A stretch of DNA of 64,000 bases from Kiritimatiellales bacterium (GCA_037141075.1 JBAXDG010000001.1:1811-65810), one strand, 5' to 3'. Counted from the first letter of the stretch, positions 1,415 to 61,725 are shown. The notes: generated from the sequence alone by a model not told the origin. Made by a program: numbers and translations.

Positions 1415-4400
1415 TCAGGCGTGATAATCCTGAATCGGGCGGACATCCCAGTCTTTGCCGTCAATCGCTTTAATAGCGCCGAGGGTGGCGCGGGCGCCGG
1501 ACTCGGTGGTGACGATCGGGATGTTCCGCAGGATGCACTCGGAGCGGATTTTGATTTCGTCCATGCGTGAGACCGGTCCGCTGGGCGTGTTAATGACCAT
1601 GGCGATCTTACCGTCCTGCATGAAGTCGATGATGTTCGGGTGTTGTCCGCTGGCGAGCTTGCAGGTTTCAATGACCTTCAGTCCGGCATCGCCCAACGCC
1701 TTGCCGGTACCTTCGGTGGCGGTCAGCGTGAAGCCAAGGCCAACGAGCGCTTTGCCGATTTCAACCATCCAGCCTTTATCGCGGTCCGTGGCGCTGAGGA
1801 ATACGCACCCTTCGGTCGGGATCATCTGTCCGGCGGCGATCTGCGATTTCCAGTAGGCCATTTCGAACGTTTTATCGATGCCCATCACTTCGCCGGTGGA
1901 TTTCATTTCCGGGCCGAGAATCGGGTCGACGCCCGCAAAACGGTTGAACGGGAAGACGGCTTCTTTGACAGCGAACCAGTCCAGCTTGGCATGCGTTCCG
2001 GAGAGTCCGAGCTGCTTGAGCGTTTTGCCGACGGCGATTTCGGTGGCGATTTTCGCCAGCGGCACGCCGGTGGCTTTCGAAACGTACGGCACGGTGCGCG
2101 AGGCGCGCGGGTTGACTTCGATGACGTAGATGTCATTGCCTTTGACAGCCATCTGCGCGTTCATCAGTCCTTTGACGTTCAGTTCGAGCGCCATGCGGGT
2201 GCAGGCCGCTTCGATTTCTTTGACGATTTTCGGATCGAGCGAGTAGGGCGGAATCGAGCAGGCGCTGTCGCCGGAATGAATGCCGGCAGCTTCGACGTGT
2301 TGCATGACGCCGCCGACATAAACCTCTTTGCCGTCGCAGACGAGGTCCACGTCGATCTCGATCGCGTTTTCGAGGAAGCGGTCGATCAGCACCGGATGGC
2401 CCGGGCTGGCGTTGAACGCGGCGTGGGTGAACGGCACGAATTCGGTTTCGTCGTAGGCGACCATCATCGCGCGTCCGCCGAGCACGAACGACGGGCGGAT
2501 CATGACGGGGAAGCCGATGCGGTGCGCGATTTTCAGCGCGTCGTCCATCGTTTTGGCCGTGCCGCTTTCCGGCTGTTTGAGGTCGAGCTTGATGATCATC
2601 TGGCGGAAGAGTTCGCGGTCTTCGGCCATGGCGATGCTCTTCGGCGAAGTTCCAAGGATTGGAACGCCGGCGGCGAGCAGGCGGTCGGCAAGATTAAGCG
2701 GAGTCTGTCCGCCCATCTGAACGATCATGCCGATCGGCTTTTCCTGTTCGTAGATGTTCATCACATCTTCGAAGGTCAGCGGCTCGAAATAAAGTTTGTC
2801 GGAGGTGTCGTAGTCGGTCGAAACGGTTTCCGGGTTGGAGTTGACCATGATGGCTTCGTAGCCCATTTCGCGCAGCGCCATGACGGTATGCACGCAGGAA
2901 TAGTCGAACTCAATGCCTTGACCGATGCGGTTAGGGCCGGAGCCGAGCACGATGATGCTCTTCTTGCCGGTATGCCGGATTTCGTTGAGGTCGCCGTAGC
3001 TGGAATAGAAGTAAGGAGTGGCGGCTTCGAACTCGCCAGCGCAGGTGTCCACCAGACGGTAAACCGGAAGGACGCCGGCTTTCTTGCGTTCCTCACGGAA
3101 GGCGAGCGGATCCTGTCCACGCAGTACGGCAATCTGAGCGTCGGAGAAACCGTTGAGTTTGACCTTGCGGAGCAGGTCGACGTCGAGCGGCATGTCTTTG
3201 GGCGCGTCGAGCAGTTCGCGCTCCATTTCTACGATCTGCAGAATGTTGTCGATGAACCACGGATCAATTTTCGTGATCTCGGCAATCTTCTGGACGGTGT
3301 AACCCTGCTTGAGCGCGACCTTGATAGCGATGCACCGCTCGGTCTTGGTGCGGGTCAGCCATTCGTCGAGCCGGTCGAGCGGCACTTTGGCTTCGGCTTT
3401 CAGGTCGAGACCGTCCACGCCGATTTCCAAGGATCGGAATGCTTTCTGGAGTGCTTCCTTAAAGTTACGGCCGATCGCCATCGTTTCGCCGACCGATTTC
3501 ATACTGACGCCGAGGTGCGCGTCCGCCGACGGGAATTTTTCGAAAGCGAAGCGCGGCATTTTGACGACGCAGTAGTCGATGGACGGTTCGAAGCAGGACG
3601 GCGTCTTCTTGGTGATGTCGTTCGGCAGTTCGTCGAGCGTGTAACCAACGGCGAGCTTGGCGGCCAGTTTAGCGATCGGGAAGCCAGTGGCTTTGGAGGC
3701 CAGCGCCGAGGAGCGCGAAACGCGCGGATTCATTTCGATGATCGCCATGCGGCCGGTTTCGGGATGGATACAGAACTGAACGTTCGATCCACCGGTTTCA
3801 ACGCCGACGGCGCGCATGACTTTGATGGAAGCGTCGCGCATCGTCTGATATTCGCGGTCGGTCAATGTCTGGGTCGGCGCGACGGTGATGCTGTCGCCGG
3901 TATGAATGCCCATCGGATCCATGTTTTCGATGGAGCAGATGATGACGACGTTATCCTTCTTGTCGCGCATGACCTCCATCTCGAACTCTTTCCAGCCATA
4001 GACCGATTCTTCGAGAAGCACTTCGCTGCTAAGGCTGGCTTCCAAACCGCGTCTGGCGATTTGTTTCAGCTCATCCATGTTGTTAGCAATGCCGCCGCCG
4101 GTGCCGCCGAGCGTAAAGCTAGGTCGCACGATGATCGGAAAGGGAAGTTCTTTTTCAGCGACGTGGATTGCTTCTTCCAGATTATGAACATGGAAGCTCT
4201 TGAGCGTTTCGATGCCCGCTTCCTTCATGACGGATTTGAAGATGTCGCGCTCTTCGCCGCGCATGATGGCGTCATAGTTGGCGCCGATCATCTCGACGTT
4301 GTACTTTTTCAGCACGCCGCTTCGATAAAGCTTCATGGCTGTGTTGAGCGCGGTTTGTCCGCCGAGCGTCGGTAGCAAGGCGTCGGGCTTTTCTTTGATG

Positions 4401-4633
4401 ATGATCTTTTCGACGGTTTCCGGAGTGATCGGCTCGATGTAAGTCGCATCCGCCGTGGCCGGATCGGTCATGATCGTGGCCGGATTAGAGTTGATCAGCG
4501 TGACGCGGAAGCCTTCTTCACGGAGTGCTTTGCACGCCTGCGTTCCGGAGTAGTCGAATTCGCACGCCTGGCCGATAACAATCGGGCCGGAGCCGATGAT
4601 CAGGATGTGGTGGATGTCAGTTCTTTTAGGCAT
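1415..4633 (-). CDS. carB: Carbamoyl-phosphate synthase large subunit
   Basis: 1072 aa; [35 protein letters not shown], duplicated ATP-grasp halves, C-terminal MGS-like domain. Confidence 0.98.
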
Positions 4634-4641
4634 AGGTACCT

Positions 4642-59861: not shown

Positions 59862-59985
59862 ACCACAGAGTTCTCAGAGGCACAGAGAATTACAGCCACG
59901 CAAAAAGATAGGAAGCGATCTCGAATGTTAGAGGCATCTTCTTCCAGCCATTAGAAACCCTCTGTGTCTCCGTGGCCTCTGTGGT
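59862..59985. repeat. Empty 9-mer-periodic hairpin between argS and the alkD-like gene
   Basis: ACCACAGAG TTCTCAGAG GCACAGAG ... CTCTGTGT CTCCGTGGC CTCTGTGGT. Confidence 0.75.
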
Positions 59986-59991
59986 GAAAAT

Positions 59992-61725
59992 CTAGATTCG
60001 TTCCGGCGTTTCGATACCGAGAAGAGCGAGGCCATTTTTCAGAATCGCGGCGGTGAGGGCGCAGAGGCGGATGCGGCTTTCGCGCGGGCCTTCATCGGCT
60101 TTGAGGAACGGGACGTTCTGGTAGAACGAGCTGTAGGTCTGCGAGAGATCGAAGAGATAGTCGGCCATAACGCTGGGTCGGTCGAGGCTGGCGGCGGAAA
60201 CGACAGCCGCCGGGAAGCGGGTCAGTTTGAGCGCGAGGCGGCGTTCGATTTCTTCGGTGAGGACAATCGGATAGTCGTCGGGGTTTTTGTCGGGGAACTG
60301 CGCGGCATATTTATCACGGACACTGGCGATACGAGCGTAGGCATATTGCAAATACGGCGCGGAATTGCCGTCCATGGCGAGCGCTTTTTCCCAGGTGAAT
60401 GTGACGAGGCTCTGCGGGTTTTGGCTGAGGTCGGTGTATTTGATGGCGCCGATGCCGACGGCGCGGGCGATTTCGCGCTGCTGCGCTTCGTCCATGCCGG
60501 GGCTGGAGGCTTTAACGACTTCGAGCGCGCGGGCTTCCGCTTCGTTGAGCAGGGCTTCGAGTTTGATTACGTTGCCTTCGCGGGTGGAGAAGGTGGCTTC
60601 GGGCAGGCGCATGAGGCCGAACCAGACGTGGGTCAGTTTGGTCGGCACACCGATTTTTTTGCAGATGTGGAAGAACTGTTTGAAGTGGAGCTGCTGACGT
60701 TCGTCGGTGACGTAGATGATTTCCGAAGGTTGGAATTCTTCGGTGCGCGAAATGACGGTGGCGATGTCAGTAGTGGTGTAGTTGTAACCGCCGTCGCTTT
60801 TGCGGACGATGGCGACGTTGAGTCCGTCGGCCTCGAGATCACAAACGAGTGCGCCGTCGCTTACACTGGCGAGGCCTTCTTTTTTCAGCCGCTCGACAGT
60901 TCCGGCGAGCTGGTCGTTATAAAAACTTTCGCCGCGGTAGAGATCGAAGGAAACGCCGAGCCGTTTATAGATGCGGTTGAATTCGCTGAGCGTGAGTTCA
61001 ACAAACTTTTCCCAGAGCGCGCGGTTCTCCTTGTCGCCCTGCTGGAGTTTGACGAGTTCAGCCTTGGCGCGGTCGCGCCAGGGTTCGTCCGCTTTGGAGA
61101 GGTTGTAGCTTTTAACGTAGATGCGTTCGAGCTCTTCGACCGGCGCGGTTTTAAGCGCTTCGGCATCGGCGAACTCGCGGTAGCCGAGAATGATGAGACC
61201 GAACTGCGTGCCCCAGTCGCCGAGATGGTTGTCGGCGATGACGTTGTAGCCGAGAGCGCGGTAGAGGCGGTCGAGGGCGTTGCCGATGACGGTGGAGCGG
61301 ATGTGACCGATATGCATCGGCTTGGCGACGTTGGGGCTGGAGTAATCGATGATGACCGTCTGATTTTTTCCGAGGTTTGGAAGACCGAGTTTTTTATCGG
61401 ACTGCATGGCCGTGAGCTGGTCGGCCAGCGCGGCGGTTTTGAGATAGATGTTGATAAAGCCGGGGCCGGCGATTTCAATCTTCTCGACGAAGTCAGGAAG
61501 CTCAGCCTTTTCTTTGAACTGCTGGGCGACGGCGCGCGGATTGGTTTTCAGCTCCTTGGCGAGTTTCATCGCGGCTTCGCACTGGCAGTCTCCGAATTCT
61601 TCGTTTCGCGACGGAATGACGGCGAGCGGAACGGCACTTAAGTCTACGCCGGGGAAGCAGGCGGCGAAGGTCTCCGCGCACCATGCGGAGAGCTGTGTTT
61701 CCAGAGAGATAGGTTCTTTTTTCAT
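59992..61725 (-). CDS. argS: Arginyl-tRNA synthetase
   Basis: AGPGFINI, DYSSPNVAKPMHIGHIRST, NHLGDWGTQFG, GNSAPYLQYAYARI. Confidence 0.98.
   Translation of the reverse strand: MKKEPISLETQLSAWCAETFAACFPGVDLSAVPLAVIPSRNEEFGDCQCEAAMKLAKELKTNPRAVAQQFKEKAELPDFVEKIEIAGPGFINIYLKTAALADQLTAMQSDKKLGLPNLGKNQTVIIDYSSPNVAKPMHIGHIRSTVIGNALDRLYRALGYNVIADNHLGDWGTQFGLIILGYREFADAEALKTAPVEELERIYVKSYNLSKADEPWRDRAKAELVKLQQGDKENRALWEKFVELTLSEFNRIYKRLGVSFDLYRGESFYNDQLAGTVERLKKEGLASVSDGALVCDLEADGLNVAIVRKSDGGYNYTTTDIATVISRTEEFQPSEIIYVTDERQQLHFKQFFHICKKIGVPTKLTHVWFGLMRLPEATFSTREGNVIKLEALLNEAEARALEVVKASSPGMDEAQQREIARAVGIGAIKYTDLSQNPQSLVTFTWEKALAMDGNSAPYLQYAYARIASVRDKYAAQFPDKNPDDYPIVLTEEIERRLALKLTRFPAAVVSAASLDRPSVMADYLFDLSQTYSSFYQNVPFLKADEGPRESRIRLCALTAAILKNGLALLGIETPERI

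Follow-up and report, generated by a model that had tools for sequence, protein, structure and literature searches.

A 15-base interrupted palindrome, TTCCAA-N3-TTGGAA (TTCCAANNNTTGGAA), occurs about once per 2 kb (about 0.4-0.5 per kb) in a 64,000-nt stretch of DNA from a Kiritimatiellales bacterium (GCA_037141075.1, JBAXDG010000001.1:1811-65810; hereafter, the window), where it overrides normal codon choice: synonymous codons are switched against the prevailing preference for G/C-ending codons wherever the encoded peptide fits. The copies were created in place by ordinary point substitutions, are actively kept in motif-rich lineages, where they persist much longer than neutral synonymous sites, and erode in sub-lineages in which the pressure has weakened. 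The motif is lineage-specific, being hyper-abundant in a Kiritimatiellales clade that includes the Pontiellaceae-like freshwater lineage of the window, related metagenome lineages, and the cultured Tichowtungia aerotolerans. We interpret it as a case similar to the highly iterated palindrome (HIP1) of cyanobacteria, in which the copies would be binding sites of an abundant chromosome-associated protein and kept by selection, and we assign this reading a probability of roughly one half.

Sites were scored as matches out of the 12 specified positions of TTCCAANNNTTGGAA and listed at 10/12 or better. The palindrome was the single word that stood out in a gapped-palindrome scan of the window; an enrichment scan for contiguous k-mers did not detect it there, because it is gapped. 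Against expectations of 0.02, 0.24, and 3.5, respectively, the window holds 8 perfect (12/12), 18 11/12, and 10 10/12 matches, and the partial words TTCCN7GGAA (29 copies, 1.9 expected) and TTCCAN5TGGAA (16 copies, 0.13 expected) are also enriched. A logo of 112 sites from the window and related loci reads T-TTCC-R-R-W-S-W-Y-Y-GGAA-A, in which TTCC/GGAA at the outer ends hardly varies, positions 5, 6, 10, and 11 accept transitions, the flanks are T/A, and 91% of sites have C or G as the exact centre base. One-off variants are almost all transitions. The dyad symmetry is exact, the two half-sites vary independently of each other, and the sequence beyond ∼2 flanking bases is not conserved.

The key statistics were computed on a gene map built by codon likelihood and validated with NCBIfam and Pfam. 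The window has a G + C content (GC) of 56%, and GC at third codon positions (GC3) is 0.65-0.75 in most genes; within sites, however, GC3 is 0.31, compared with 0.67 outside. An original prediction, drawn up from the nucleotide sequence alone, held that the palindrome shapes codon and amino acid choice in essential genes, and the six copies that it quoted are all present with the codons and peptides given (carB VPILG at 2650 and FRSLE at 3425, carA LPTFG at 6979, pyrD IPIIG at 13383, thrC FHVLE at 44687, and argS FQPSE at 60721). All three frames are used, as had also been proposed, with 8, 10, and 3 of the 21 in-gene sites at ≥11/12 in frames 0, 1, and 2. The proposed leaning toward A/T-ending codons was borne out for CCA (8/10 Pro codons inside sites vs. 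4% elsewhere in window genes), GGA (10/11 Gly codons vs. 20%), and CAA (6/6 Gln codons vs. 21%), and is weaker for GAA and TTC, which are already majority codons and hence not unusual. Had the same codons been equally common off the motif, the codon claim would have failed; they are rare there, so it is not refuted.

The seven perfect and 14 one-mismatch copies inside genes greatly exceed what the proteins and their codon pools would yield. When codons were permuted per gene with protein and codon pool fixed, 1000 runs gave 0.03 perfect and 0.80 one-mismatch copies (maxima 1 and 4), and a shuffle of codon order gave 0.00 and 0.095. Nearly everything that the proteome allows is also occupied: all 14 peptide positions in the window that permit a perfect copy carry at least 10/12 (seven perfect, five at 11, and two at 10), nine of the 22 positions with one protein-forced mismatch attain the highest possible match, and all eight fully compatible peptide positions in T. 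aerotolerans carry at least 11/12. In an equivalent analysis on an earlier, GC3-based gene map, the tolerated mismatches lay at the inner positions 5, 6, 10, and 11.

Related DNA, whose loci carry L-numbers, came from three sources: a carB genome scan, a pyrD metagenome scan, and a punA homologue search with contig look-ups. In codon alignments, the peptides VPILGT and FRSLE (carB), IPILGI (guaA), LPTFGI (carA), and IPIIGM (pyrD) are the same in motif-less relatives, which encode the conserved peptides with CCG/CCC, CTC/CTG/ATC, and GGC, whereas motif-rich relatives use CCA, CTT/ATT, and GGA. For pyrD, all 63 motif-less orthologues with the same or a near-identical peptide score at most 10/12, whereas 14 of 16 motif-rich ones score at least 11/12. 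Where the amino acid is the same, the window codon stands at 27% of motif-specified third positions in motif-less orthologues vs. 79% in motif-rich ones, in a comparison whose cells are not phylogenetically independent. The codon claim withstands its second refuting condition as well, under which motif-less orthologues would have shared those codon choices. The guaA FQGLE copy shows the pattern within a single site: among four rich lineages the free central Gly is GGA, GGT, GGG, or GGC, while CAA, TTG, and GAA are fixed.

All nine window sites with orthologues align gap-free, and five of them lie on peptides identical in motif-less relatives. The aligned sites are contiguous relative to L002, L003, L008, and L011, with the sole exception of a gap in the 10/12 match at 6270, present against the distant L008 only. 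The pyrK site is the one qualification, falling in an indel-rich loop common to L087 and L094; this glycine-rich insertion loop of pyrK (11396-12217; alignment columns about 195-230) is present in the window and those two loci, is absent from other relatives, and holds the FQGLE copy. Gap-free sites, conserved peptides with different codons, and unconserved flanks thus agree with the predicted origin by point substitution, and the lack of gaps relative to orthologues and of conserved flanks likewise agrees with the prediction that transposition was not the source.

We therefore give almost no credence to a mobile-element origin, whereby the IS200-like Y1 transposase whose gene lies at 239-1192 would have spread a REP-like (repetitive extragenic palindromic) or other small transposable element, and the copies would be what remains of that element or the sites it targets. 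That transposase-domain gene does adjoin the site at 1399, and the pyrK site does sit in an indel-rich loop, but 28 of the 36 sites (78%) fall within genes, where they keep the reading frame and leave the length unchanged compared with motif-less orthologues, and the inverted repeats of the transposase gene are unrelated to the motif. These 33-bp repeats (121-153 and 1179-1211, 94% complementary) bracket its 334-aa open reading frame (ORF) and were found nowhere else in the window or among 162 loci; the element they delimit (121-1211) adjoins a short ORF at 1219-1392. Spread of REPs or miniature inverted-repeat transposable elements by a Y1 (RAYT/IS200-like) transposase was ruled out on the same grounds, namely the share of sites in genes, the lack of indels, the unconserved flanks, and the unrelated repeats.

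The peptides encoded by the motif leave a measurable footprint. The three types that had been predicted, FQxLE, xPxxG, and SxxWK, were found and match the three frames, and FQxLE and SxxWK are strongly enriched: per 1000 residues, FQxLE numbers 0.20-0.28 in motif-rich and 0.005-0.04 in motif-less DNA, and SxxWK-type peptides number 0.10-0.17, vs. none in 525,000 control residues. The window encodes 14 motif-compatible peptides, compared with 0.85 in within-gene amino acid shuffles and with 1, 0, and 0 for mirror-order control peptides. Local replacements are visible in guaA, with FQGLE across the clade vs. YENLP, FADLP, FNSLG, and FSDLP in outgroups; in mazG, with FQ[SG]LE vs. FRSLE; and in carA of L011, where VSNLWK, which includes a new Trp, stands in place of the VATVKE or VEVIQQ of others. 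The influence on proteins is real but partial, with amino acids replaced in weakly constrained segments. The original prediction of local amino acid replacement holds in variable segments (guaA, pyrK, the cinA-like gene, mazG, and carA of L011), but not at the five of nine orthologue-bearing sites where the peptide is ancestral and conserved, nor for its own example, punA VPNLG, since the peptide is [IV]PNLG or close to it across 120 Kiritimatiellales homologues of 66-92% identity. Motif-less relatives keep this punA peptide, too, with G/C-ending codons.

It is very improbable that the motif owes its retention to the usefulness of the encoded peptides or of an mRNA hairpin with a 6-bp stem and a 3-nt loop. 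RNA transcribed from either strand could form the hairpin, and three peptide types recur; however, the same DNA word in three frames yields unrelated peptides, the motif is ∼3-fold denser in intergenic DNA than in genes, and compensatory double changes are rare. Among sense-strand one-off variants, five are G-U compatible and eight stem-breaking, and searches for Rfam families and tRNAs returned no matches; on these two results the RNA hairpin was ruled out.

By carB, the window belongs to the Kiritimatiellota, among freshwater Pontiellaceae/Kiritimatiellales metagenome-assembled genomes. The sequencing runs found comprised assembled contigs of freshwater and lake metagenomes, together with RNA runs that gave no coverage. 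Within the window's clade, to a lower limit of about 79% pyrD identity, motif density is high, at 0.15-1.9 sites per kb; it is high, too, in L011, L101, and L103, which are further removed, and in T. aerotolerans (L161, CP047593.1, 321345-342199), where four perfect and six one-mismatch sites in 20.9 kb amount to a window-like density. A pair of sites 32 bp apart lies in the thymidine phosphorylase gene of T. aerotolerans. None of 68 loci from other phyla carries the motif, and most of the remaining Kiritimatiellia-like loci also lack it.

Maintenance and erosion can be seen side by side. Between motif-rich species, synonymous third-position differences are 24/149 = 0.16 at motif positions vs. 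about 0.36 in the background, whereas between rich lineages and the nested, motif-poor L003, divergence is 0.42-0.56 at motif positions vs. 0.32-0.43 in the background. L003 and L081 are nested within the rich clade in the tree, with guaA 94% identical to that of the window vs. 82-84% for the rich L002, L087, and L089; they match only 8-9 of 12 positions at the shared carB, guaA, carA, and pyrD sites and use G/C-ending codons there. Residual enrichment persists in these two loci (TTCCAN5TGGAA, 5 vs. 0.05 expected in 34 kb), and a second palindrome, AACCGGTT, is enriched in them (11 vs. 0.85 expected, small counts) and weakly so in the window (5 vs. 1.3 expected; at 14206, 15547, 26403, 37765, and 52333). 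AACCGGTT, noted also for L095-L097 and L162, could be an alternate iterated palindrome; apart from it, no palindrome was strongly enriched in the motif-poor lineages.

The 36 window sites and their contexts are as follows, with frames given for in-gene sites.
1399-1413: 11/12, TTTCAACCATTGGAA; intergenic, just downstream of the carB stop.
2650-2664: perfect; carB, frame 1, GTT CCA ATC CTT GGA ACT = VPILGT; peptide kept in motif-less relatives, codons differ.
3425-3439: 11/12; carB, frame 0, TTC CGA TCC TTG GAA = FRSLE; not perfect because Arg prevents a full match, the closest Arg codon, CGA, being used.
6270-6284: 10/12; guaA, frame 0, FQGLD; perfect (FQGLE) in L082, L002, L087, and L089.
6395-6409: 11/12; guaA, frame 1, IPILGI.
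6979-6993: perfect; carA, frame 1, CTT CCA ACC TTT GGA ATC = LPTFGI; perfect too in the distant L011; L003 has CTG CCG ACC TTC GGC.
9385-9399: 11/12; mazG, frame 0, FQSLE.
11981-11995: perfect; pyrK, frame 0, FQGLE, in the variable indel-rich loop; relatives have IQALE, LQTLE, LKTVE, and SASVE.
12267-12281: 10/12; intergenic.
13383-13397: perfect; pyrD, frame 1, ATT CCA ATC ATT GGA ATG = IPIIGM.
13758-13772: 11/12; ORF 13582-14136, frame 2, VSNGWK; first of a 31-bp pair.
13789-13803: 11/12; ORF 13582-14136, frame 0, FQTLK; second of that pair, in a cluster of 2-3 sites in relatives.
16790-16804: perfect; PAS/histidine-kinase gene, frame 2, YSNLWK.
22720-22734: perfect; cinA-like gene, frame 0, FQPLE (FQTSE in relatives); first of a 31-bp pair.
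22751-22765: 10/12; cinA-like gene, frame 1, YPGLGK; second of that pair.
23578-23592: perfect; punA, frame 1, GTT CCA AAC CTT GGA AGA = VPNLGR; ancestral peptide; identical DNA site in T. aerotolerans.
25612-25626: 11/12; dapB, frame 1, VPDIGK.
27558-27572: 11/12; intergenic, between divergent genes.
29177-29191: 10/12; DUF1318 gene, frame 2, ASGGWN.
30196-30210: 10/12, TTCCGAGCTTCGGAA, itself a perfect palindrome; polyferredoxin gene, LPKLGK.
35872-35886: 11/12; gspF, frame 1, IPLLGN.
36504-36518: 10/12; 23S_rRNA_IVP-family gene.
37886-37900: 11/12; pseudopilin gene, frame 1, VPMTGT.
41187-41201: 10/12; ORF of the type II secretion cluster, IHPLE.
44308-44322: perfect; intergenic, upstream of thrC; centre base A, an exception.
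44687-44701: 11/12; thrC, frame 0, FHVLE.
45575-45589: 11/12; thrC, frame 0, FQSSE.
52699-52713: 11/12; iorA, frame 2, ISERWK.
57439-57453: 10/12; hisC, frame 0, FQGLE; first of a 31-bp pair.
57470-57484: 11/12; hisC, frame 1, LPKIGN; second of that pair.
58670-58684: 10/12; intergenic.
59121-59135: 11/12; intergenic.
59942-59956: 10/12; intergenic.
60721-60735: 11/12; argS, frame 0, FQPSE.
61368-61382: 11/12; argS, frame 1, LPNLGK.
63476-63490: 11/12; between the recA stop and the next gene.

The genes confirmed with NCBIfam/Pfam include carB, guaA, carA, mazG, pyrK, pyrD, the PAS/histidine kinase, the cinA-like gene, punA, dapB, the type II secretion-like cluster, thrC, trpS, scpAB, pheA, iorAB, hisC, argS, and recA. 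Intergenic DNA makes up 8% of the window and holds eight of the 36 sites. The operator of a transcription-factor regulon was ruled out, just these eight sites being intergenic and positions within genes being uniform. Three small, low-GC3 genes of the 23S_rRNA_IVP (four-helix-bundle) family lie among the housekeeping genes (4683-5069, 36343-36873, and about 55783-56055), one of them between gspF and gspG in the secretion cluster. An island of low GC3 (0.48-0.52) at about 45.8-48.3 kb (45778-47879), carrying HEPN AbiU2-family and protease-like genes, contains no sites and looks recently acquired.

Absence from such atypical DNA would also be expected of a DNA uptake sequence, for which competent cells favour motif-bearing conspecific DNA and recombination spreads the copies, as for the uptake signal sequences (USS) of Haemophilus and the DNA uptake sequences (DUS) of Neisseria. 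The motif density lies within the USS/DUS range (PMC2817400), all reading frames are used and encoded peptides are enriched as in USS/DUS, and the window includes a secretin/ATPase/pseudopilin cluster. We nevertheless consider this explanation unlikely, because that pilus-like cluster scores as type II secretion, comEC, comEA, and dprA were not seen in the window, and competence is not known in the Kiritimatiellota. Known uptake sequences (USS, DUS) are asymmetric and oriented, whereas the window motif is a perfect dyad with phased neighbours. In addition, frame placement of uptake sequences correlates most strongly with preferred codons, and uptake sequences lie preferentially at poorly conserved residues (Findlay and Redfield, 2009; PMC2817400), contrary to the rare codons (CCA, 4%) imposed here inside highly conserved peptides.

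Neighbouring sites tend to be spaced by helical turns. Three pairs in the window lie exactly 31 bp apart, where about 0.02 would be expected per spacing (P about 6e-5 after correction for 45 spacings). With each orthologous pair entered a single time, the loci together yield 15 pairs, spaced at 19, 21, 22, 22, 22, 24, 30, 31, 31, 31, 31, 32, 32, 32, and 42 bp, and 13 of these fall within 1.5 bp of a multiple of 10.5 (21, 31.5, and 42 bp; P about 1e-5, post hoc). A weakly conserved signal-peptide ORF after pyrD holds a conserved cluster of 2-3 sites with spacings of 31 and 22 bp (window 13758-13803; L091 1112-1179; also L090, L092, L114, and L112), with all three motif frames used within one reading frame. 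A 9-bp indel shifts one pair of this cluster between 22 and 31 bp.

Dyad symmetry, independent variation of the half-sites, and helical phasing together point to a dimeric reader of duplex DNA that probably binds cooperatively. In the HIP1-like reading, a two-fold symmetric (homodimeric) protein would read the two TTCCAA half-sites on double-stranded DNA and may bind cooperatively on one face of the helix; each extra site would be favoured, and sites would accumulate to near-saturation of what the proteome tolerates. Nucleoid organisation or the marking of self-DNA are candidate roles.

Several observations weigh against this reading. The helical-phase result is post hoc and based on 15 pairs. 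NCBIfam/Pfam searches of the window turned up neither a candidate reader protein nor a methyltransferase or competence gene. At the kilobase scale spacing is Poisson-like (coefficient of variation, 0.9-1.0) and placement within genes is uniform, and no regular kilobase spacing, within-gene positional bias, or strand/sense bias of the centre base was found in the window; near-saturation with such spacing and placement fits an uptake or repair drive at least as well as selection on each site. Finally, two viral contigs have a host-like motif density, which is more easily explained if the process affects whatever DNA is resident than if the function is chromosomal. The first, L177 (IMGVR_UViG_3300009860_000298), encodes capsid, portal, and head-tail joining proteins and has three perfect sites in 5.3 kb, within or beside the capsid and portal genes; the second, L271, has six sites in 9.1 kb and encodes an integrase and a C-5 cytosine methyltransferase. 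The latter is 562 aa long, with a long insert between its catalytic halves. The viral 17-mer scan otherwise gave mostly single chance matches, and among the matches listed only L177, L271, and L257 were multi-site.

One alternative is a drive linked to methylation and repair, following Elhai's model for HIP1, in which a methyltransferase and very-short-patch-type repair would convert near-cognate sites to the motif without benefit at each site. This alternative, which we regard as possible but doubtful, would account for the saturation of permissible positions, the opportunistic, Poisson-like placement, the patchy phylogenetic distribution with erosion in nested lineages, the near-exclusive transitions among one-off variants, and the host-like density in viral contigs, one of which encodes a methyltransferase; the enrichment of AACCGGTT in the eroding L003 and L081 also recalls the replacement of HIP1 by alternate HIPs (PMC4390886). 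On the other hand, neither a methyltransferase gene nor a Vsr-like one is present in the window, a specificity of 12 positions is long for such an enzyme, helically phased neighbours are not predicted, and the AACCGGTT signal consists of small counts. Saturation and phage copies favour a drive, and phasing favours a binding function. A broader proposal, which we put forward tentatively, is a chromosome-wide Kiritimatiellota system in which a dimeric reader would drive the 15-bp dyad to saturation through cooperative binding, uptake, or repair bias, rewriting codons and proteins across an order-level clade and its phages; on loss of the system, sites would decay and AACCGGTT would take over, by a mechanism unrelated to the HIP1 or USS/DUS machinery.

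Whatever the agent, a non-coding DNA word overrides codon bias in essential enzymes, raising CCA from 4% to 80% of Pro codons, and places rare residues, Trp among them, in proteins; a genome-level signal here conflicts with the protein code to an unusually strong and measurable degree. Motif-rich, eroding, and motif-less lineages coexist in one order and provide natural contrasts, and T. aerotolerans, cultured and with a complete genome, offers an experimental handle on selection vs. molecular drive outside the cyanobacteria. The motif could serve as a compositional marker for binning and for host assignment of Kiritimatiellales DNA and phages, and it calls for caution in codon-usage and dN/dS (nonsynonymous to synonymous substitution rate) analyses of motif-bearing genomes.

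Literature searches, which covered the motif and its core as well as Tichowtungia and repeats in Kiritimatiellota, brought up no description, and the motif appears to be undescribed. Among known systems, HIP1 (GCGATCGC), which has alternates, is the cyanobacterial highly iterated palindrome, and HIP-type words are 15- to 300-fold or more over-represented, within and between ORFs, regardless of frame and codon bias (Elhai, 2015, PMC4390886; Xu, Lawrence, and Durand, 2018, PMC5861425). The window motif resembles HIP1 as a short palindrome over-represented by orders of magnitude inside and between ORFs, used in all three frames with codon preference overridden, conserved at its sites between genomes beyond neutral expectation, and lineage-specific, having been lost in places and perhaps replaced there by another palindrome. 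It differs, however, in being a 15-bp interrupted dyad (6+3+6, C/G centre), AT-leaning in a 56% GC genome, whereas HIP1 is an 8-bp, GC-rich, continuous palindrome; it is neither GCGATCGC nor a GC-rich variant, and it occurs in the Kiritimatiellota (Planctomycetes-Verrucomicrobia-Chlamydiae group) rather than in cyanobacteria. Its neighbours are phased by helical turns, with local spacing Poisson-like within 64 kb, and no cognate methyltransferase was identified in the window, the one lead being the C-5 methyltransferase on the viral L271.

Sites of dimeric repressors and of ParB, Noc, and KorB share with the motif two-fold symmetric half-sites and a cooperative-looking spacing of 2-4 helical turns, and the KorB operator, like the window motif, is an odd-length palindrome with an S centre. 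Those systems, however, number from a few to about 100 sites in a genome, most of them between genes, whereas the window motif occurs about once per 2 kb, 78% in genes, at saturation of coding tolerance. With USS and DUS, the motif shares an expected hundreds to thousands of copies per genome, a large coding fraction, enriched encoded peptides, absence from atypical or foreign genes, and copies that arise by substitution in situ. Unlike those oriented sequences, it is palindromic, without strand or sense bias of its centre, it uses rare codons inside conserved peptides, and it comes with no sign of competence or of an uptake receptor; its peptide enrichment is also far above the roughly 2-fold reported for USS (PMC2817400). 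The motif thus differs from HIP1, USS, and DUS in its architecture and sequence, its phylum, its phased pairs, its rare codons in highly conserved peptides, and the strength of its peptide footprint.

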